A DNA stretch of 40,771 nt. Source: Escherichia phage BUCT789. Within the stretch, counting starts at the first letter, position 1. Every line of letters starts with the position of its first letter. The stretch lies in sequence record PQ999132.1, one strand, 5' to 3'. Position numbers and translations under genes: made by a program. Below, in pieces: positions 1 to 26,080 of the stretch. The notes under the pieces are model-generated. The model was not told the DNA's origin and did no database searches. It was given only the letters and a program-made list of their open reading frames with translations.

Positions 1-239
1 TTCTCTTCTTCTGCCGGTTTAGTGTCAACTAGGTCTTCACCTTCGACCGTGATTTCTTTCGTTACTTCTTTTACAACAGTAGGCGTGATTGTTGCAGTTT
101 CTGCTACACCACTGTCGACGTCTTTACCATATGGCGCCGTGATAGCCTTCGGCAGTTCAGTACGGCGTGCACTGTTCGCAGCAATCAGTTCATGTGCAAC
201 TACGAAACGTTCCAGTAATACTAAGAATTTCTCTAACAT
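1..239 (-). CDS. acidic hypothetical protein, 5' part; gene wraps the window junction and continues at 40366-40644
   Basis: ATG at 239-237 preceded by GAGGAG; frame stays open through position 1 and resumes at window end; D/E-rich product (MLEKFLVLLERF...KYFEEE). The + strand ORF 22..312 is its antisense shadow. Confidence 0.6.
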   Translation of the reverse strand, partial: MLEKFLVLLERFVVAHELIAANSARRTELPKAITAPYGKDVDSGVAETATITPTVVKEVTKEITVEGEDLVDTKPAEEE

Positions 240-19310: not shown

Positions 19311-19723
19311 TGGGCTACTTTGAGGACTTAACAAAAGCGTTCGACGTGCCGCTGGTAGCCTTCGGAACCGCCAACGGCATCAAGGTTGCGCTTGAAAATA
19401 TCGACGCGCCGACGTCAACAGATACGCCGTATCTGGCGAGCTACATGTTACTGGCTGATACGGAACAGGCTGACTTATTCTTCACCGAGCAACGCTCTGG
19501 TATTTATCAGGTCGACATTAACTACGCATCGGTGAAAGGTAGCGCGCCAATCAATAAAATGGCAGACTTACTTAACACGGCGTTTAAAGCAGGTAAGTCA
19601 TTTTCGCGTAACGACATCTGCGCCGAGGTTCAATCGGTTAGCCTGGGGCCGCTGATTGTAGAAAACGGATGGGCCAAACGGCCATTGTCAATTAACTTTA
19701 TTGCATTCACCAAGAGGCTGTGA
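19307..19723 (+). CDS. tail terminator protein (putative)
   Basis: 138 aa; directly upstream of the major tail protein; ATGA-coupled. Confidence 0.5.
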   Translation: MMGYFEDLTKAFDVPLVAFGTANGIKVALENIDAPTSTDTPYLASYMLLADTEQADLFFTEQRSGIYQVDINYASVKGSAPINKMADLLNTAFKAGKSFSRNDICAEVQSVSLGPLIVENGWAKRPLSINFIAFTKRL

Positions 19724-19725
19724 AT

Positions 19726-20892
19726 ATGGCTACAACTCCTTTTAAGGGCGCGAATACCGCGCAATTCTATGTGGCGGAAGTGACCCCGGGCGTAACACCG
19801 GCTAACCCGGTATGGTCGCCGTTGCGCAACACGGGCGGCGTTCCTGCCATTACCCGCGACACGCTGACCTCCAACGAACTTGACGGCAGCCGAGAAACCA
19901 CATCCATCCGCACCGGTAACAAGCAGGTTAGCGGAGAATACGCTATTGAGCTTAGCTCTAAAAGTCAGGACGACTGGTTAGCCGGGGCTTTAGGCTCTAC
20001 GTGGCAACCCGGCGTTTCCCTGCCAGGACTATCGATTACCGTCGCACCCGCGGGCAAGACGTTCACACGCGCTACCGGCAGTTTTATCACTGACGGAGTT
20101 GGGGTAGGCGACCTGATTGCGTTTACCGATTTAACAGGCGATAACGCAAAACCATTTATTGTTACTGCAGTAACGGCTACGGTTGTTACTGGTGCGGGCA
20201 TCCAACACACCCTGACCACCGAGACAAAAACTAGTAAGGCTAAAACTGGCGACACGTTGGAAACTGGTAACGCGTGTAAGACGTTCTCTATCCTTACCTG
20301 GTACAAAGGCCAGTGCGGCGGTACTGACGCGTACACGTTAACCAAAGGCGTGGAAGTTTCTGGTTTTACCATCGAACAGGCTGTTAACGCGATGGTAACT
20401 GGCAGCTTTCCATTCATCGGTCGCAGTCAGGAGATTCTCACTACGCCGCCGACCGGTTCCAACTTCTCATCTGTTACTTTTGGTGATGAGCCGTTCTCTT
20501 CGGTTGACGTTTCCGTGTTCGACGGCTCTACGCCGTTGCGTTGTGACAGTCTGACTATCACCAACGATAACAGCGCGTCCGCGCAGTTCGAACTTGGTAA
20601 CACTAACGTAGCGTTTGTGGAGCGTAGCCGTGCAGCTAACACCTTCTCCATCTCCGGCAAGCTGTATGACATGGCGATGATCCAGAAGTTTATCAATGAG
20701 CAACAGGTAGAGATTAACTCTATTCTGGCGGGGGTAAACGGGGCTATGTCTTTCAGTTTGAAACGAGCGGAACTTACGGCGGTCACGCCAGAAATATCTG
20801 GCCCGGAATCAATCACTCAGAGCATAGAAGGACAGTCCACAGGCAATCAATATCAATCTTCTATTGTTATCCAGCGTATCACCTACGCATAA
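19726..20892 (+). CDS. major tail protein
   Basis: ATG 19726 with AAGAGG RBS; T/G/V-rich beta-type sequence; strong terminator downstream. Confidence 0.7.
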   Translation: MATTPFKGANTAQFYVAEVTPGVTPANPVWSPLRNTGGVPAITRDTLTSNELDGSRETTSIRTGNKQVSGEYAIELSSKSQDDWLAGALGSTWQPGVSLPGLSITVAPAGKTFTRATGSFITDGVGVGDLIAFTDLTGDNAKPFIVTAVTATVVTGAGIQHTLTTETKTSKAKTGDTLETGNACKTFSILTWYKGQCGGTDAYTLTKGVEVSGFTIEQAVNAMVTGSFPFIGRSQEILTTPPTGSNFSSVTFGDEPFSSVDVSVFDGSTPLRCDSLTITNDNSASAQFELGNTNVAFVERSRAANTFSISGKLYDMAMIQKFINEQQVEINSILAGVNGAMSFSLKRAELTAVTPEISGPESITQSIEGQSTGNQYQSSIVIQRITYA

Positions 20893-20898
20893 AACTAA

Positions 20899-20918
20899 GG
20901 CCCCGAAAGGGGCCTTTT
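20899..20918. terminator. bidirectional rho-independent terminator
   Basis: ggcccc-gaaa-ggggcc with T-runs on both strands; identical 29-nt copy at 32709-32737. Confidence 0.7.
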
Positions 20919-20919
20919 A

Positions 20920-21093
20920 TTATTCTTTCAATTGCATAGGGTAGAAGTTAACGTGTTCCCCTTTATTCTGACGCAGTAAACATTCATCTAACGCATCTTC
21001 CCGACTACTTACAGCATAGATATCATTCCACTCATCCCATTCTTCGTCGAATACTCGGATTACATATATTGTTTTCATTACGGTCTCACTCAT
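20920..21093 (-). CDS. small hypothetical protein (accessory cassette)
   Basis: Minus-strand ORF; likely start at ATG 21093 overlapping the upstream stop. Confidence 0.45.
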   Translation of the reverse strand: MSETVMKTIYVIRVFDEEWDEWNDIYAVSSREDALDECLLRQNKGEHVNFYPMQLKE

Positions 21094-21316
21094 CAATGTT
21101 ACTCCGGTACTCCCGTAACTTCTCCAGGCTTTCAATTGCTTCCGCTAAGTCGGTTCCGGTGTCCTTATGCCCGCGAAGACCCATGCACAATAACTTCTTC
21201 AATGCGTGCTGTAGTGCGGGGTCACGGATGTCGAAGGCACGGAGAACATCGTAAACGTCTACGGTCATAGTGCTGCCGTGAGTGTTTGTCATTGTTCGGT
21301 TGTATTTTGAAGTCAT
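21086..21316 (-). CDS. hypothetical protein (76 aa, accessory cassette)
   Basis: ATGA-coupled to the phosphoesterase gene stop. Confidence 0.5.
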   Translation of the reverse strand: MTSKYNRTMTNTHGSTMTVDVYDVLRAFDIRDPALQHALKKLLCMGLRGHKDTGTDLAEAIESLEKLREYRSNIDE

Positions 21317-22443
21317 CCCAGCATCTCCGGTGAAATAGTTAAACGTGCGACCTCGCCATATTCGGCGCTATAAGTAATTACATTTGCACTACGGCCTGAC
21401 ATCCACCCGCCGCGGGAGGCATAGGCGTCTTTAGCCGCTAAGGTGCGGTGTTGCTCAACAATCATGTTACGGCTTTCTACAATCTTCTGGTGGTGCAGGT
21501 GGCCTACGTGGGCGTAGCTATAGACACTCTCACCGAACGCTTTGCGGAATTTGGCAATCATAACCGGTTCGATAGCATCGAATCGCGCCTTATGCCCGTG
21601 GTGAAAGAACAACGTCGTTTTTCCGTGTTGCACCATCTTGTAAACATCCGGCGACGTATCGACGAACACACGCGGCTCATTATCGTATAGCGTGCTGAAC
21701 ATCTCAGCCAACCAAATCATGCCACTCTCGTCGTGGTTCCCTTGCACAATAAGCAAGCGAACATTTTTATGCTTAACCAGCGCCATATCGACAACACGGC
21801 GGACCATGCGAATCATGTAGCGGACAAGTTTCTGGTAACGGGTGTCGGCGTCAAGGGCGTGACCGCTTGCAGGTGTAACGGCAACCAGACTATCAAAGTG
21901 TGCAAGGTCGCCCAGCAGGTTAATAACCCCTGTTCCAGCATCTGGCGCTTTCTGGAACGCAGCGTCGAACCATCGAGAGAACAGGTCTTCTGCAATCTTC
22001 ATGTCCCAGTCGTCGCCGCTCTCGTCAGCCCATGCCAGCATACCGAGATGGAAATCAGATACCGTGTAAAGATTGAGTAGTTTATCGTCCCGTTTGGCCC
22101 GGATCGCTTTAACAGGCGCGACCGGGGTAATCTCCAACTTCATGCCTTCGATTATGGCTTTCATTAACTCGACCTGACGTTCTGCGTCTGTGTCGGTCTT
22201 AACCCATTGCAACTTGGTGTTGCCAAACTCGTCCACCAGCGACGATGTGCCTTTAATCTTGTAGCCATCTGGTACAAGGTGGCTAACGTCACGCCCGTGG
22301 CCTACACCTTTCTTAGCCAGCTTCGCTTTACGGATACGAATAACTCGGTCTGAGATGCCGTATTTACGGGCGATGTCTACATTCTTCATCCCGGCGTTCA
22401 ATTCTTCCTGTAACTGTTCGTCGGTTATTTTCTTCTGGGCCAT
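21313..22443 (-). CDS. calcineurin-like metallophosphoesterase with N-terminal HTH domain
   Basis: 376 aa; HTH-like DIARKYGISDRVIRI; phosphoesterase motifs DFH, GDLAHFD, GNHDE, HHGH in order. Confidence 0.75.
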   Translation of the reverse strand: MAQKKITDEQLQEELNAGMKNVDIARKYGISDRVIRIRKAKLAKKGVGHGRDVSHLVPDGYKIKGTSSLVDEFGNTKLQWVKTDTDAERQVELMKAIIEGMKLEITPVAPVKAIRAKRDDKLLNLYTVSDFHLGMLAWADESGDDWDMKIAEDLFSRWFDAAFQKAPDAGTGVINLLGDLAHFDSLVAVTPASGHALDADTRYQKLVRYMIRMVRRVVDMALVKHKNVRLLIVQGNHDESGMIWLAEMFSTLYDNEPRVFVDTSPDVYKMVQHGKTTLFFHHGHKARFDAIEPVMIAKFRKAFGESVYSYAHVGHLHHQKIVESRNMIVEQHRTLAAKDAYASRGGWMSGRSANVITYSAEYGEVARLTISPEMLG

Positions 22444-22508
22444 GCTTACTTCCTCGTGTTTAGGATTTGTCCTATTTAACCACAGTGGATTCCTTTAAAT
22501 AAAGGCAA

Positions 22509-22835
22509 CTATTTACTTTCTGCGCCTATCGCCCACCCTGTCATTACCATTTGCAGACGGGTGGCTGTCAGTAGGCTATAGAAAGCATCTCCGTTTTTCT
22601 CTACCGAACGTATCACTGTGTAGGTTACGGCCTGCGGGGGTAGGCCCGATTTACCAACCTCCACGGCGGCCTCACACTCGCGAACTGTAGAGTCCTTGAA
22701 CGCCTTTACAATAGTAGGGTCGGCTTTCTCGAGCACACCAGAAGTCATAAGAACAGATTCACTAAATACCTGTTCGCACGGAGACCCAAAAGTAGCAAAA
22801 GACATAAAACCCAGAGCTAGTACTAATTTACGCAT
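22509..22835 (-). CDS. secreted/periplasmic small protein (signal peptide)
   Basis: 108 aa; N-terminal MRKLVLALGFMSFATFG; has its own conserved promoter. Confidence 0.6.
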   Translation of the reverse strand: MRKLVLALGFMSFATFGSPCEQVFSESVLMTSGVLEKADPTIVKAFKDSTVRECEAAVEVGKSGLPPQAVTYTVIRSVEKNGDAFYSLLTATRLQMVMTGWAIGAESK

Positions 22836-22863
22836 AATTATTTCCTCAGTAAGTTACATGTGA

Positions 22864-22892
22864 ATAGTACCCTATTATATTGGGGTGTGCAA
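22864..22892 (-). promoter_or_regulatory. promoter, TTGCAC-N17-TACTAT (minus strand), for the accessory cassette
   Basis: Reverse complement reads cTTGCACaccccaatataatagggTACTATtcacatg, near-identical to 3749-3777. Confidence 0.55.
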
Positions 22893-22999
22893 GTAGTGTG
22901 CTAGAATAAGTTTGCGCCTAGTGTCGCACACGAAAAGCGGGTGGTTCCCGCCTGGCGCATTAACCATAACCAGTAACCTCTTAACCAAAGGACTAAAGA

Positions 23000-23416
23000 A
23001 TGAAACTTTCTGATTTCTATTTTGCCGACCGCCACGCCGCCGGTACTAAAATGCCTATCCTTCTGCCCAGTGGTAAAGATTCCGGTGAATGGTTGCAGGT
23101 CATCGGCCCCGATTGTGACGCTGGTGTTCGTGCGGGCCGTGCCTACACAACGGCAATTCGACGCCTTACGGAAGAACTTGCGCCATTAGATAAAGAGTGC
23201 GAGGCGCTGAATAACTGGGCGCGCTATAATGATGAGAAGGGCTGGCGGGTGATGGACCTGAACAAGCAGCTTGCCGTGGAAATCGTCACCGGTTGGTCAT
23301 TCGACGAACCATTCAGCAAAGAGGCGCTTGCTAACCTGTTCGACCAGTACAGTGGGTTGGCAGAGGCCGTAGTTAAGCATCACACCGATAGCCGTGAGAA
23401 ACTCTCGGAAAAGTAA
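23000..23416 (+). CDS. tail assembly chaperone (lambda G-like)
   Basis: 138 aa acidic protein directly upstream of the tape-measure gene. Confidence 0.6.
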   Translation: MKLSDFYFADRHAAGTKMPILLPSGKDSGEWLQVIGPDCDAGVRAGRAYTTAIRRLTEELAPLDKECEALNNWARYNDEKGWRVMDLNKQLAVEIVTGWSFDEPFSKEALANLFDQYSGLAEAVVKHHTDSREKLSEK

Positions 23417-23778
23417 AAGCGCTGTATGAATTTGCGCAATGGTGCTTTGTCGACCGCCACAAACGTAAGCAATTCGACGACATCGCGGCGGGCCACCAGG
23501 CGGCTTTGATTGCAATGGGCGTGATTAAAGAACCGCAGATGAAAGAAGCGACGGGGCCGGAATGCCCCGTTTCTCTTATCGACGTGTTCGAGAAATACCG
23601 TGCCATTAAATTCCTACAGCGCGAAACAGATGATACTATCGTTATAATCCCGCGCGATGCGCTCAAATGGCAAGATTTGGTAGCGTTTCGTGATGTCGCC
23701 GGTTACGGCATAAGTTTGTTCGAAGCCGAGGTTATCATGGGCTTAGACGGAATATTTGAGGGCAGAGAAGATGGCTGA
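23000..23778 (+). CDS. tail assembly chaperone long form via putative -1 frameshift (lambda GT-like)
   Basis: The -1 frame is open from 23398 and runs to 23778, overlapping the last 6 codons; candidate slip site G GAA AAG at 23407-23413; the extension overlaps the tape-measure start. Confidence 0.4.
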
Positions 23779-26080
23779 TACGGCTTCCCTAATTGCCAGA
23801 GTAAAAACAGAAGGCGCTGATGTAGCCGCTAAACAGCTTGACGCTATGGCGGCATCCGCAGACCGTGCGGACACATCCGTAAACAAACTAACGCCGGATG
23901 TTAATAAAGTAAACTCCGCTACGTCTAAAGCGGCTTCTGACGGTTTCGCTAAATTCCGTAACGCCGCCGGGCAGGTAGGCTTCCAGGTGCAGGACATGGT
24001 CGTCCAGTTGCAGTCCGGCACGTCTGCATTCGTAGCAATCGGGCAACAAGGCTCTCAGCTTGCGGGTGCTTTCGGCCCTGGTGGCGCGGTGCTTGGGGCT
24101 GTAATTGCTCTCGCATCAGCAATTGGCGGTGTCCTGTATAAATCACTAACGGAGGCCGAAGGTAGCTCAAAAGACCTCGAGGCCGCGCAAAAGCAGTTAA
24201 AAGACACCTTCCAACAAACGGCATCCGGCTCTCTCGAACTGACAGACGGCCTTATCCAGCTTACCCAAATAAGCCGAGAAGCGGCGGAGACTCAACTTGC
24301 TTTGGCTAAGGCTAACGCAGACCTTATCGCGCAGCAAACAGCTAAAGCCGTTCGTGAGGACGCAGAGTCGTGGGAGACGTGGAAAGCCTCCACGGCATCA
24401 GCTATCAGCCAGTACGATGCATTGGTCTCTAAAGGTGCGGATGTAGGCGACACGTTAGAAAAACTCGGTGGCACTTACGAGGGTAACATCGTAGGCGTCA
24501 ACATGCTGGCGCAGAATATCGCAGAGCTTAGCAGTAAGTTTGGGGTTAACCGTGACCAGGCGCTGGAGATGATAGCGGCGCAGAGTGCGTTTAACAAAGA
24601 GCCAACCGCCGAGAATGCCCGTCGCATCGCCGATGTGTTTACCGACTGGCTCGGTAATACAAAACAGTTGAACCCGGAACTTATCCGCCTGACCGACAAT
24701 GCCAACAAGAACGCCACGGCACTGGAGAACGCGGAGAAGTCCGCAAACGCGGCGGCGGAGGCCCAAAAGAATCTTGGTCGTAACGTCAACTCAACAACGC
24801 AGAGATTCCAGGAACAGAACGAAGCTATCGTCAAAAACCAGCAAATCGCTATCTTAAGTGACCGCGAGCGTATCCGTGCGCAAGCTGAACTGGATAAGCA
24901 GGCGTTCGCTAAACGTGAAGCTGTCACCAAAGAACAGATCGCCGCGTATAATGCTGCGCGTGACACGGAAGCACAACAAGACATCGCTCGCATCGACGCT
25001 ACCGAAAAAGCGAAGGCCGACCGCGAGGCCAAATCGAACGAGAAACGGCTGGCGGCACAAGCCAAACGCGAAGAAACGGCGGCTGAACGACAGAAAAAAG
25101 CGGCGGAAGATTTCCTGGCTACTGTCGACCGCACAACCGGAGATGAGATTTCGCGCATTACCGCTGCGGAAGAGCAGAAACTGGCAAAACTGGAAGAGTT
25201 TAACAGAGCTGGGACTATAAGCCAGCAGCAATACGAAAACGCCAGGACGCAGATTATGCTCTCGGCCGAACAGGCCCGCCAGGAAGAACTCGCCAAGCGA
25301 GAGAAAGAACGACAGGAGAAGAACCAGAAAGGCGAAGACTTCATGGCTCAGATTATGGGCCAAAACGCCGCTGAGCTTGAGCTTCTGGAGATTCAGGAGC
25401 AACAAAAACTGGACGTTGCTGACAGGTATCGCGAACAGAATCTGATTAACGAAGAACAGTACCAGGCCGCGGTTAATGCTATAAATGACCAGTACGCGTT
25501 AAAACGTGCTAACGCAACGGGTAACGCTTTTGGCATGATGGCGGATAATATTAAATCGTCGCTTGGCGAAGCGTCTACTGCGTACAAAGCTTTCGCTATT
25601 GCGCAGGCCACTATTGCCACATACACCTCCGCTATAGAGGCTTATAAATCTGCATCGGCTATCCCTATTGTTGGATGGGTGCTCGGGCCTGTAGCCGCCG
25701 CCGCCGCCGTAGCCGCGGGGCTCGCAAACATTGGCAAAATTCGTTCGGCCCGTGAGCAGGGCGGTAACTTAGCTGCAGGTCAGTTATCTACTATCGCGGA
25801 ACGTAACAAGCCAGAAGTTATTATGCCTGCAGGGGCGTCACGCGTCCGTACCGCAGAACAGATGCGCCAGATTATGGGCGAGAACGGCAACAAGTCAGGC
25901 GGTGACAGCGTTACAATCGTCAACAACACCACCGGACGTGTTGATTCCGCCGTTACAGAGCGTGACGACGAAGGGCGGTTACGTGTTATCATCAGCGAAA
26001 CAGTATCGGCGGCGTTACAAGACAGCAACAGTGCAATCTCTAAGTCACGCCGTGCTACACGAAACCAGCCGGGGTATTAA
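23756..26080 (+). CDS. tail tape-measure protein
   Basis: 774 aa; long A/E/K/Q-rich coiled-coil; Gly/Ala-rich hydrophobic segment near C-terminus. Confidence 0.85.
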   Translation: MRAEKMADTASLIARVKTEGADVAAKQLDAMAASADRADTSVNKLTPDVNKVNSATSKAASDGFAKFRNAAGQVGFQVQDMVVQLQSGTSAFVAIGQQGSQLAGAFGPGGAVLGAVIALASAIGGVLYKSLTEAEGSSKDLEAAQKQLKDTFQQTASGSLELTDGLIQLTQISREAAETQLALAKANADLIAQQTAKAVREDAESWETWKASTASAISQYDALVSKGADVGDTLEKLGGTYEGNIVGVNMLAQNIAELSSKFGVNRDQALEMIAAQSAFNKEPTAENARRIADVFTDWLGNTKQLNPELIRLTDNANKNATALENAEKSANAAAEAQKNLGRNVNSTTQRFQEQNEAIVKNQQIAILSDRERIRAQAELDKQAFAKREAVTKEQIAAYNAARDTEAQQDIARIDATEKAKADREAKSNEKRLAAQAKREETAAERQKKAAEDFLATVDRTTGDEISRITAAEEQKLAKLEEFNRAGTISQQQYENARTQIMLSAEQARQEELAKREKERQEKNQKGEDFMAQIMGQNAAELELLEIQEQQKLDVADRYREQNLINEEQYQAAVNAINDQYALKRANATGNAFGMMADNIKSSLGEASTAYKAFAIAQATIATYTSAIEAYKSASAIPIVGWVLGPVAAAAAVAAGLANIGKIRSAREQGGNLAAGQLSTIAERNKPEVIMPAGASRVRTAEQMRQIMGENGNKSGGDSVTIVNNTTGRVDSAVTERDDEGRLRVIISETVSAALQDSNSAISKSRRATRNQPGY

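Follow-up and report, generated by a model that had tools for sequence, protein, structure and literature searches.

A leftward, moron-like accessory operon between the tail tube and tail chaperone genes of Escherichia phage BUCT789, with a candidate exclusion-type secreted protein and a helix-turn-helix metallophosphoesterase

The genome of Escherichia phage BUCT789 (PQ999132.1; the whole analysed stretch of 40,771 nucleotides is called the window here) raises the question of why a block of genes is read leftward within its rightward tail genes, and what these genes do. In this study, the block was found to be a leftward operon of four genes (20897-22892), flanked by the rightward genes for the tail tube and for the tail assembly chaperones. 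From the promoter onwards, these genes encode p108, a 376-residue helix-turn-helix (HTH) metallophosphoesterase (hereafter the enzyme), p76 and p57, and their spacing is tight or overlapping. The explanation favoured as a whole, to which a probability of about one half is given, is a moron-like accessory operon that carries p108 as an exclusion-type protein and the enzyme as a DNA-directed nuclease. The initial annotation of this stretch had proposed an opposite-strand accessory block with its own conserved promoter and with bidirectional terminators at both ends, encoding a secreted candidate for superinfection exclusion, an HTH-metallophosphoesterase possibly directed at host phosphoproteins or nucleotide second messengers, and two small proteins. 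All four leftward open reading frames (ORFs), those of the two small proteins p76 and p57 included, were found inside the rightward morphogenesis genes at or near the expected coordinates (Table 1).

The structural part of the answer came from a comparison of relatives. With the tail tube protein as the anchor, 80 related viral contigs and two complete genomes were taken and the interval from the tube gene to the chaperone gene was mapped in each; the counts below cover the 77 relatives that have both flanking genes, and the ORFs counted in the gap are those of at least 50 amino acids. The gap ranged from 93 bp to 3.1 kb, and it held no gene in eight relatives, the enzyme gene in 40 and other genes in 29. 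Leftward orientation was found for 206 of the 221 gap ORFs. Moreover, the tube and chaperone genes stand 93-184 bp apart with nothing between them in relatives whose tube proteins are 64-78% identical. The alleles of the block assort freely, since a secreted (SEC) or an Imm-like first gene occurred together with p76, with the kinase and HAD phosphatase pair (KIN+HAD) or with other genes, in all combinations. No homologue of the enzyme was present in the whole genomes of Cornellvirus FSL SP-031 and Serratia phage Smarc3, in both of which a single leftward gene of the p108 family is retained in the slot. The proposal of an inserted accessory block is supported by this presence/absence variation among the 77 relatives and by the two complete genomes without the enzyme; the variation of the gap and the free assortment of alleles are the behaviour of a mobile, moron-like module at a hot spot of recombination, so that the structural claim of the initial annotation was right. 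Furthermore, Kagunavirus and some Jerseyvirus phages share 88% identity in the enzyme and only 67-68% in the tube proteins, and in Dhillonvirus the enzyme is about 75% identical and its gene adjoins the terminase gene outside the tail module. These identities and this location indicate horizontal exchange of the enzyme gene. A structural role of the cassette in the virion was rejected on account of its opposite orientation and its absence from relatives. In one relative (locus L040), a 613-residue rightward ORF (81-1922, +) shares the slot with a gene of the p108 family, and it may encode a tail fibre or a depolymerase.

The cassette may thus be pictured as a moron-like operon in a hot spot between the tube and chaperone genes of Guernseyvirinae phages, built of three exchangeable slots for an envelope protein, a core enzyme and a terminator-proximal variable part. 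It would be transcribed from a host sigma-70-type promoter (22864-22892) to the bidirectional terminator at 20897-20916, and its own promoter and terminator would make it independent of the rightward transcription of the tail genes. The coordinates of the promoter claimed earlier match TTGCAC-17-TACTAT exactly, with the -35 hexamer at 22892-22887, a 17-nt spacer and the -10 hexamer at 22869-22864 of the minus strand. The motif TTGC[AG]N-16..18-TAnnAT was kept in 45 of 78 sequences (the 77 relatives and the window), mostly at a similar distance from the chaperone start codon, and in 39 of the 40 relatives with the enzyme; its chance rate is 0.003 per 200 nt. The predicted transcription start lies near 22857, and the leader of about 22 nt contains a GAGGAAA ribosome-binding site. 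This promoter was not listed by a generic promoter scan. The top-scoring minus-strand candidate of the scan, TTCACA-16-AATAAT (22864-22837), has a -10 element that ends 1 nt before the ATG, and it was rejected because a transcript from there would have no ribosome-binding site. A perfect TATAAT occurs at 22879-22874, inside the spacer of the leftward promoter.

With respect to the terminators that had been claimed at both ends, the left one was confirmed, and the right one did not hold up in full. The left terminator is an 8-bp GC-rich hairpin with T-runs on both strands, and its RNA fold gave -16.3 and -15.9 kcal/mol (z -3.1 and -2.8); it is predicted to end both the rightward transcript of the tail tube gene and the leftward transcript of the cassette. 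At the right end, the plus strand of the hairpin at 22937-22951 lacks a T-run, the minus strand shows a weak one, and the thermodynamic signal is weak (z -0.07 and -1.3), so that the hairpin is not convincing as a terminator. The chaperone mRNA leader in which it lies (22899-22999, +) is highly conserved across relatives. The hairpin itself occurs there in compensatory variants (GCGGT..ACCGC, CCGGG..CCCGG and GCAGA..ACTGC), GAAAAG always precedes it, and AACC repeats and CTCTTAACC, which resembles boxA, come after it. A role as an RNA element in the antitermination or regulation of the terminator-rich tail operon is conceivable, as is one as an insulator terminator for the minus strand. In addition, the divergent rightward extended -10 element, TGCTAGAAT, would restart the transcription of the tail genes past the cassette, and it overlaps the leftward promoter region. 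The leftward promoter and this element stand back to back and overlap within about 45 bp (22864-22907). RNA polymerase at one of them may therefore exclude the other, and the arrangement could serve as an early/late switch. The cassette is read leftward, as are the replication genes of the phage, and it is expected to be expressed early.

The first gene of the cassette encodes a protein with a typical Sec signal peptide (residues 1-17, with MRK, a hydrophobic core and an end at ATFG, followed by SP). Cys20, Cys54 and Gly64 are invariant in its family, and the signal peptide and the two invariant cysteines bear out the claim that a secreted protein is encoded here. The AlphaFold model of p108 is all-helical (mean predicted local distance difference test score, pLDDT, 86). 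It matches the profile family phrog_14165. Only 76 sequence clusters were found for the p108 family, and the longest contigs reach about 40-48 kb, being phage-sized unless fragmentary. A fold search with p108 gave no match in PDB and only its own family in BFVD. Moreover, there was no match in Pfam, NCBIfam, the PHROG functions or PADLOC, and sequence profiles placed p108 in neither the T4 Imm family (PF14373) nor the HK97 gp15/YebO family (PF13974). The labels 'glycoprotein precursor' (GenBank) and 'DUF3718' (one relative) could not be reproduced.

The slot behind the conserved promoter region holds the p108 family at 26 loci, an Imm-like gene at 28, a YebO-like gene at 5-6 and a lipoprotein gene with a LAGC lipobox at two. 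The Imm-like allele is a membrane protein of 59-68 residues with two helices that matches Imm_superinfect (PF14373) above the cutoff (E 1e-12 to 2e-15) and phrog_1039, 'immunity to superinfection' (E 2e-22). The YebO-like allele shares with HK97 gp15 a transmembrane segment and the TRANEQVE-L motif, with 34-41% identity and a profile score of 30 bits. Because alternative alleles of the slot belong to known superinfection-exclusion families, p108 is suggested to block superinfecting phages. The earlier proposal of an exclusion candidate is supported circumstantially by the Imm_superinfect, gp15/YebO-like and lipoprotein alleles at the same position and not by the sequence of p108, which falls in no exclusion family. 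Our best guess, drawn from the allelic position and not from homology, is superinfection exclusion or otherwise an envelope-directed role. The protein would be exported by Sec to the periplasm, fold there into a small disulfide-bonded helical bundle and block the entry of superinfecting phages.

Several further observations concern the same slot. At the Kagunavirus loci (L010-L039), the kind of first cassette gene goes without exception with the type of tail encoded downstream (22509-26080 of the window was compared): chaperones are 99-100% and tape measures 90-100% identical to those of the window at p108 loci, and 46-53% and, where found, 68-89% identical at Imm-like loci. This linkage is present although the intergenic region in between is conserved, and it is broken in Jerseyvirus (L054 versus L076). 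It may hint that the exclusion factor and the tape-measure type have to match. Within the p108 family, a divergent branch (L060-L062 and L066; 37-39% identical) shows VLGC or VIGC in the signal peptide as a possible lipobox, and some members of the family may thus be lipoproteins. In a tblastn search, the p108 of the window was 100% identical to that of hz69 (ON556632) and 98.1% identical to that of Henuyfy11N (PV696613), which is otherwise the closest genome; small-scale mosaicism is one of two options for this pattern.

The second gene encodes the enzyme, in which all five metallophosphoesterase motifs were found in order as SDFHLG, GDLAHFD, GNHDE, HHGH and GHLHH, the superfamily being recognized by DxH, GDxx(D/H), GNH(D/E), H and GHxH in this order. 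The second motif, GDLxH, is presumably Mre11-like. In an alignment of 57 sequences, with homologues 32-49% identical, the residues D130, H132, G178, D179, N236, H237, H282, G314 and H317 were invariant, and such invariance of catalytic residues in 57 diverse members indicates that catalysis is under selection. The AlphaFold model (pLDDT 92.4) consists of an N-terminal three-helix HTH (residues 1-45, helices 8-44) on a linker of lower confidence, a beta-hairpin and helix (61-103) and a binuclear alpha/beta-sandwich metallophosphoesterase domain (119-376). The model and the conservation of the motifs agree with the initial designation of the gene product as an HTH-metallophosphoesterase. The gathering cutoffs of Pfam were not reached (PF00149, 20.8 bits versus 27; PF12850, 18.9 versus 21.5), the enzyme being too divergent for these models, and its membership in the superfamily therefore rests on the motifs and the fold. 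The best PHROG match was phrog_704, 'DNA repair exonuclease' (E 1.7e-165; residues 3-375 against positions 1-389 of 390), which also includes T1 ORF16 and homologues from Campylobacter, Vibrio and N4-like phages; the second best was phrog_284, 'exonuclease'. Phage records with a homologue number 2044, and the homologues fall into 4583 clusters at 50% identity; the 120 homologues listed by a protein search were 96-99% identical to the enzyme.

The structural neighbours of this enzyme are generic, and the fold by itself does not identify the substrate. A Foldseek search against PDB gave 118 matches with E <= 1e-3, and the 50 best listed were all metallophosphoesterases; the structural matches to Rv0805, PolD DP1, Mre11/SbcD, YfcE, GpdQ and LpxH had 11-16% identity. 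Mre11 (template modelling score, TM, 0.43) and PolD DP1 had better query-normalised TM-scores than Rv0805. Several other lines of evidence point to nucleic acid as the context of this enzyme. A sequence search of PDB chains gave insignificant matches only, and the metallophosphoesterases among these weak matches were exclusively nucleases (Nuclease MPE, SbcD and Mre11). The HTH is a family-wide feature, and longer members add Sigma70_r4 or HTH_11 domains (both above the cutoffs) or HTH_23 domains. In T1, Rogue1, Vibrio, Ruegeria, N4-like Roseovarius and Campylobacter phages, the enzyme gene lies amid genes for helicase, methylase, ligase, thymidylate synthase, deoxynucleoside monophosphate (dNMP) phosphatase or lysis. 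Furthermore, the trio of metallophosphoesterase, HAD_PNKP and dNMP kinase genes has an identical order in K1H-type Kagunavirus phages and Yersinia phage PY100, with each protein 47-48% identical. The HAD phosphatase of the K1H type matches PF25109 (HAD_PNKP; E 2e-20) and phrog_415, 'polynucleotide kinase' (E 6e-63), and the kinase matches the dNMP kinase family phrog_139 (E 2e-45). The HTH domains of the family, the genes that surround the enzyme gene in other phages and its linkage to Pnkp-phosphatase and dNMP-kinase genes together indicate nucleic-acid or nucleotide metabolism. On this basis the substrate is probably nucleic acid, and the favoured assignment, by analogy, is a DNA-docked nuclease or phosphodiesterase; host DNA as its target is a tentative suggestion that falls somewhat short of even odds. 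The flexibly tethered HTH would dock on DNA, and the two-metal centre would hydrolyse phosphodiester bonds of the DNA. By analogy with T5 A1 and mycobacteriophage gp48, the breakdown of host DNA for takeover and nucleotide supply, or the processing of DNA ends, would be the most likely role.

The same evidence has to be read against other explanations, of which the two that were proposed at the outset fared worst. A protein phosphatase resembling lambda PPase and acting on host phosphoproteins would belong to the same superfamily, for which the enzyme gave weak Pfam Metallophos matches. However, of the signatures that mark phosphoprotein phosphatases (PPP), namely GDxHG, GDxVDRG and GNHE, the first two are absent, SDFHLG and GDLAHFD standing in their place; in addition, PHROG, Pfam and the PDB sequences gave no protein-phosphatase match, and no PPP-type enzyme was among the fold matches listed, so that this activity is hardly credible. 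The degradation of cyclic or linear nucleotide second messengers, by which an anti-defence phosphodiesterase would counter CBASS, Pycsar, Thoeris or type III CRISPR, is suggested by the class III cyclic-nucleotide phosphodiesterase Rv0805 as the top match by Foldseek E-value, and also by the accessory nature of a cassette whose slot holds host-interaction genes. This generic match, the sole link to such an activity, is no better than that to Mre11 or DP1 and therefore probably reflects the shared superfamily fold only, and no sequence-profile match to the class III enzymes (CpdA/Rv0805) was obtained. Moreover, a small-molecule substrate would leave the HTH domains of the family unexplained, the neighbouring genes belong to nucleic-acid and nucleotide metabolism, and the authors of the BASEL collection did not report Kagunavirus to be exceptionally resistant to the defence systems that they tested. 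The known anti-signalling enzymes Acb1 and Apyc1 have other folds. We consider the second-messenger proposal very unlikely.

Two further explanations take the nucleic-acid context seriously and draw different conclusions from it. The phosphatase domain of bacterial Pnkp is a metallophosphoesterase, and the enzyme can be likened to that domain. It could thus be an end-healing phosphoesterase (a 2',3'-cyclic phosphodiesterase or 3'-phosphatase) that, together with a Pnkp-type phosphatase and a kinase, mends tRNAs or other RNAs after their cleavage by anticodon nucleases of the host, as in T4 Pnkp/Rnl1 and bacterial Pnkp. The HAD_PNKP and P-loop kinase genes directly downstream of the enzyme gene in K1H-type cassettes and PY100 agree with RNA repair, yet the kinase matches the dNMP kinase family phrog_139 and not a polynucleotide kinase, the genome annotation of the Kagunavirus Bas73 has no RNA ligase, both partner genes are missing from the cassette of the window, the HTH conserved throughout the family is of a DNA type, and the pnk and enzyme genes of T1 are unlinked. 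Taken together, these points make RNA repair a quite unlikely role. Alternatively, the enzyme might chiefly be a DNA-binding regulator or a replication or packaging accessory for phage DNA, p108 then being a factor in lysis or envelope remodelling. The model would be Bxb1 gp47, a metallophosphoesterase that is also a recombination directionality factor and is needed for replication. The HTH resembles those of LuxR and sigma-70 region 4 and weakly matches phrog_836, 'late transcriptional activator'; the gene adjoins divergent, overlapping promoters; it stands beside lysis or packaging genes in several phages; and the protein is 97-99% conserved within Kagunavirus. A regulatory role is nevertheless unlikely in our judgement, because the catalytic residues are invariant across the 57 diverse members, complete phage genomes of the same subfamily manage without the gene, and homology to Bxb1 gp47 was not detectable.

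The cassette was compared with known systems, among which morons are the closest in layout. Two of the features that define a moron are found here, as a conserved promoter and terminator of its own (with predicted activity) and as presence/absence polymorphism among syntenic relatives. The phages that bear the cassette are taken by us to be virulent; the whole-genome annotation of Bas73 lists an excisionase-type regulator and neither an integrase nor a repressor. HK97 gp15, the product of the founding moron, has been shown by experiment to block DNA entry in dependence on the tail of the incoming phage (PMC3594210). Like p108, this small envelope protein is encoded among tail genes, beside those for the chaperones, in a transcription unit that has a promoter and a terminator to itself, and gp15-like genes of relatives occupy the exact position of p108. 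HK97 gp15 itself is an inner-membrane protein of a temperate phage, and its gene, codirectional with the tail genes, lies between those for the chaperones and the tape measure, whereas p108 is soluble and secreted, has no sequence similarity to gp15, is encoded in the opposite direction in a presumably virulent phage and is followed by three more genes. The cassette is therefore best described as moron-like, with HK97 gp15 the nearest relation anatomically; it differs in having four genes, in being antisense to the tail operon, in its presumably virulent phages and in the combination of an envelope protein with a probable nucleic-acid enzyme. The T4 Imm family (PF14373) is comparable in that its members fill the same promoter-proximal slot behind the same promoter region in about 28 of the 77 relatives. 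Unlike that family, p108 has no Pfam match, and a cleavable signal peptide with a helical periplasmic domain takes the place of two transmembrane helices.

For the enzyme, the most instructive comparison is T5 A1, a predicted metallophosphatase that is essential and sufficient for the digestion of the host chromosome and acts with the DNA-binding A2 and the dNMP phosphatase Dmp (bioRxiv 10.64898/2026.04.02.716235). Both are early-expressed phage metallophosphoesterases (the enzyme by prediction) associated with a DNA-binding function and, for the enzyme in sibling cassettes, with a HAD nucleotide phosphatase, and T5 A1 resembles the enzyme in the order of the motifs and in a local NHD-x4-S-x-WL stretch. 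T5 A1, however, has 556 residues and belongs to phrog_1745, whereas the enzyme of the window has a fused DNA-binding module and its cassette has no HAD gene; the alignment of the K1H-type HAD phosphatase with T5 Dmp was confined to the region of the DxDGT motif. The metallophosphoesterase gp48 of mycobacteriophage A10ZJ24 is made early, has phosphodiesterase activity and damages host DNA, silencing defence genes (PMC12287305). It and Bxb1 gp47 (phrog_221) are likewise phage metallophosphoesterases with all five motifs; they form another subfamily of about 255 residues without the HTH. Judged from sequence, T5 A1 and gp48 are functional analogues of the enzyme and not members of its family. Mre11/SbcD and PolD DP1 gave the best query-normalised structural matches (TM 0.40-0.43), and the enzyme is labelled 'DNA repair exonuclease' in many records; the differences are an identity of 11-14% and an N-terminal HTH instead of the capping domain and the Rad50/SbcC partner. 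True homologues within PHROG 704 are that of Rogue1, with 47% identity over the full length, and T1 ORF16. The T1-like phages differ in that the gene lies in the early or replication-lysis region and not in the tail operon, and it has no secreted-protein partner there.

A number of observations weigh against the favoured reading of an exclusion-type p108 and a DNA-directed nuclease in a moron-like operon. On the side of the enzyme, the best Foldseek E-value (5e-8) belongs to Rv0805 (14% identity, TM 0.34-0.42), and a fold search alone cannot separate nucleases from phosphodiesterases. A capping domain of the Mre11 type is absent, since the enzyme ends 59 residues past GHxH and the model has no extra domain, and no Rad50/SbcC partner was found in the cassette or in the annotation of the Bas73 genome. 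The similarity to T5 A1 amounted to an hhalign probability of 15% over 19 columns and an hmmsearch score of 1.6 bits, hhalign detected no similarity to Bxb1 gp47, and a long distance separates the enzyme and pnk genes of T1. With respect to p108, searches of Pfam, PHROG, PDB and BFVD revealed no sequence or fold likeness to characterised exclusion proteins, and the argument for exclusion is solely one of position. The leftward promoter is weak by comparison with the consensus (7 of 12 positions), and the classical benefit of morons to a lysogen is inapplicable if the phages are virulent. Finally, the literature search reached no experimental study of any cassette gene or of any member of PHROG 704: nothing was found on a Kagunavirus phosphoesterase, a Drexlerviridae metallophosphoesterase, host DNA degradation or gene 2.5 of T1, or phosphoesterase escape mutants, and the Kagunavirus literature that was found does not discuss the cassette.

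The terminator-proximal slot is the most variable part. The gene for p76 overlaps the end of the enzyme gene as ATGA, and p76 is predicted from this overlap to be translationally coupled to it; the spacer between p108 and the enzyme gene is 65 nt long and contains GAGGAAG. By tblastn, p76 was found in 773 phage records, and most of its Jerseyvirus copies are 76-92% identical. It carries the GenBank annotation DUF3310, and its PHROG matches are to longer families of 235-246 residues (phrog_2452 and phrog_17613, 'ATPase'), of which only the C-terminal 70 residues align. In Acinetobacter phage AbC62, the p76 domain forms the C-terminus of a 193-residue protein (L096, 2135-2716). These sequence matches mark p76 as a widespread phage domain. 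The small, acidic p57 occurs in only 22 phage records (tblastn; 55-85% identity), is absent from the cassette position in Bas73, K1H and AG11 and has no match in Pfam, PHROG or PADLOC. The ATG of its two possible starts is likely to be the real one, and it overlaps the p76 stop by 8 nt. None of the cassette proteins matched a known defence-system model in PADLOC. HAD phosphatase and dNMP kinase genes replace p76 in K1H-type relatives, and other relatives have HNH homing endonuclease or Rha/KilAC genes in the downstream slot. HNH genes stand between the enzyme gene and p76 at five loci (L012, L017, L035, L044 and L046) and directly after the enzyme gene in T1 and a Vibrio phage, which suggests that the enzyme gene is a homing target.

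The window is a nearly complete phage genome, and its region 20000-24000 is about 99.9% identical over the full length to Henuyfy11N (PV696613), an Escherichia phage of the genus Kagunavirus. The same region matches 354 further records, chiefly Escherichia Kagunavirus and Salmonella Jerseyvirus phages of the subfamily Guernseyvirinae. With Bas73 as the annotated comparison, most of the leftward replication module was placed beyond 32.9 kb, up to the window's end, and a part of it at 597-2855, and rightward early, lysis, head and tail genes fill the space between. Over 20.5-23 kb, the GC skew is negative and the GC content drops slightly to 0.48-0.50, versus 0.52-0.54 in the flanks. The equivalents of the two chaperone genes are annotated in the K1H and Smarc3 records as a single joined frameshift product, comparable to lambda G/GT. 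Two antisense ORFs in the tube and tape measure genes, 19965-20417 (-) and 24475-25344 (-), are labelled Gp910 and Gp17 in the GenBank record of a near-identical phage; they have no family support and are probably spurious. The cassette genes themselves are already in GenBank, annotated by similarity.

Table 1. Features of the cassette and its flanks in the window (strand + is rightward)
Feature	Position	Strand	Basis
Tail tube gene	19720-20892	+	PF18906, E 2e-36
Bidirectional intrinsic terminator (predicted), AAGGCCCC-GAAA-GGGGCCTT	20897-20916	both	Terminator scan of both strands; RNA fold
p57	20920-21093	-	ATG at 21093, 57 aa; alternative in ORF list, TTG at 21135, 71 aa (20920-21135)
p76	21086-21316	-	ORF list, 76 aa
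HTH-metallophosphoesterase	21313-22443	-	ORF list, 376 aa; phrog_704
p108	22509-22835	-	ORF list, 108 aa; Sec signal peptide; phrog_14165
Sigma-70-like promoter (predicted), TTGCAC-17-TACTAT	22864-22892	-	Sequence; conservation in relatives
Divergent rightward extended -10 element (predicted), TGCTAGAAT	22899-22907	+	Found in 37 of 78 sequences, with its position nearly constant
Hairpin GCGGG-TGGTT-CCCGC	22937-22951	both	Conserved, in chaperone mRNA leader; compensatory changes
Tail assembly chaperone genes	23000-23416 and 23506-23778	+	PF08748, PF23812

In conclusion, the cassette joins elements of known kinds and holds two uncharacterised protein families. A more far-reaching proposal combines two statements: that the p108 family, confined to Guernseyvirinae-like phages, is a new class of soluble periplasmic exclusion proteins, interchangeable with membrane proteins like T4 Imm and HK97 gp15 and perhaps matched to the tape-measure or tail type, and that PHROG 704, with more than 2000 phages including T1, is a takeover nuclease that degrades host DNA. 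Both together are rather unlikely to be true; if they were, the PHROG 704 enzyme would be a compact, self-targeting counterpart of T5 A1 plus A2. PHROG 704 is among the commonest uncharacterised enzyme families of small enterobacterial siphoviruses, with members in T1-like phages, Dhillonvirus, Kagunavirus, Jerseyvirus and Klebsiella Webervirus. Phage therapy and biocontrol make use of many of these phages. The label 'DNA repair exonuclease' is applied to the family routinely and without evidence, and knowledge of its real activity would close a recurrent annotation gap. The BASEL phages Bas70-76 make the cassette experimentally tractable. Furthermore, exclusion-type genes appear to have a natural docking site at the junction of the tube and chaperone genes. 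This junction could be mined for new exclusion factors, and it could be a safe insertion site for the engineering of these compact phages.

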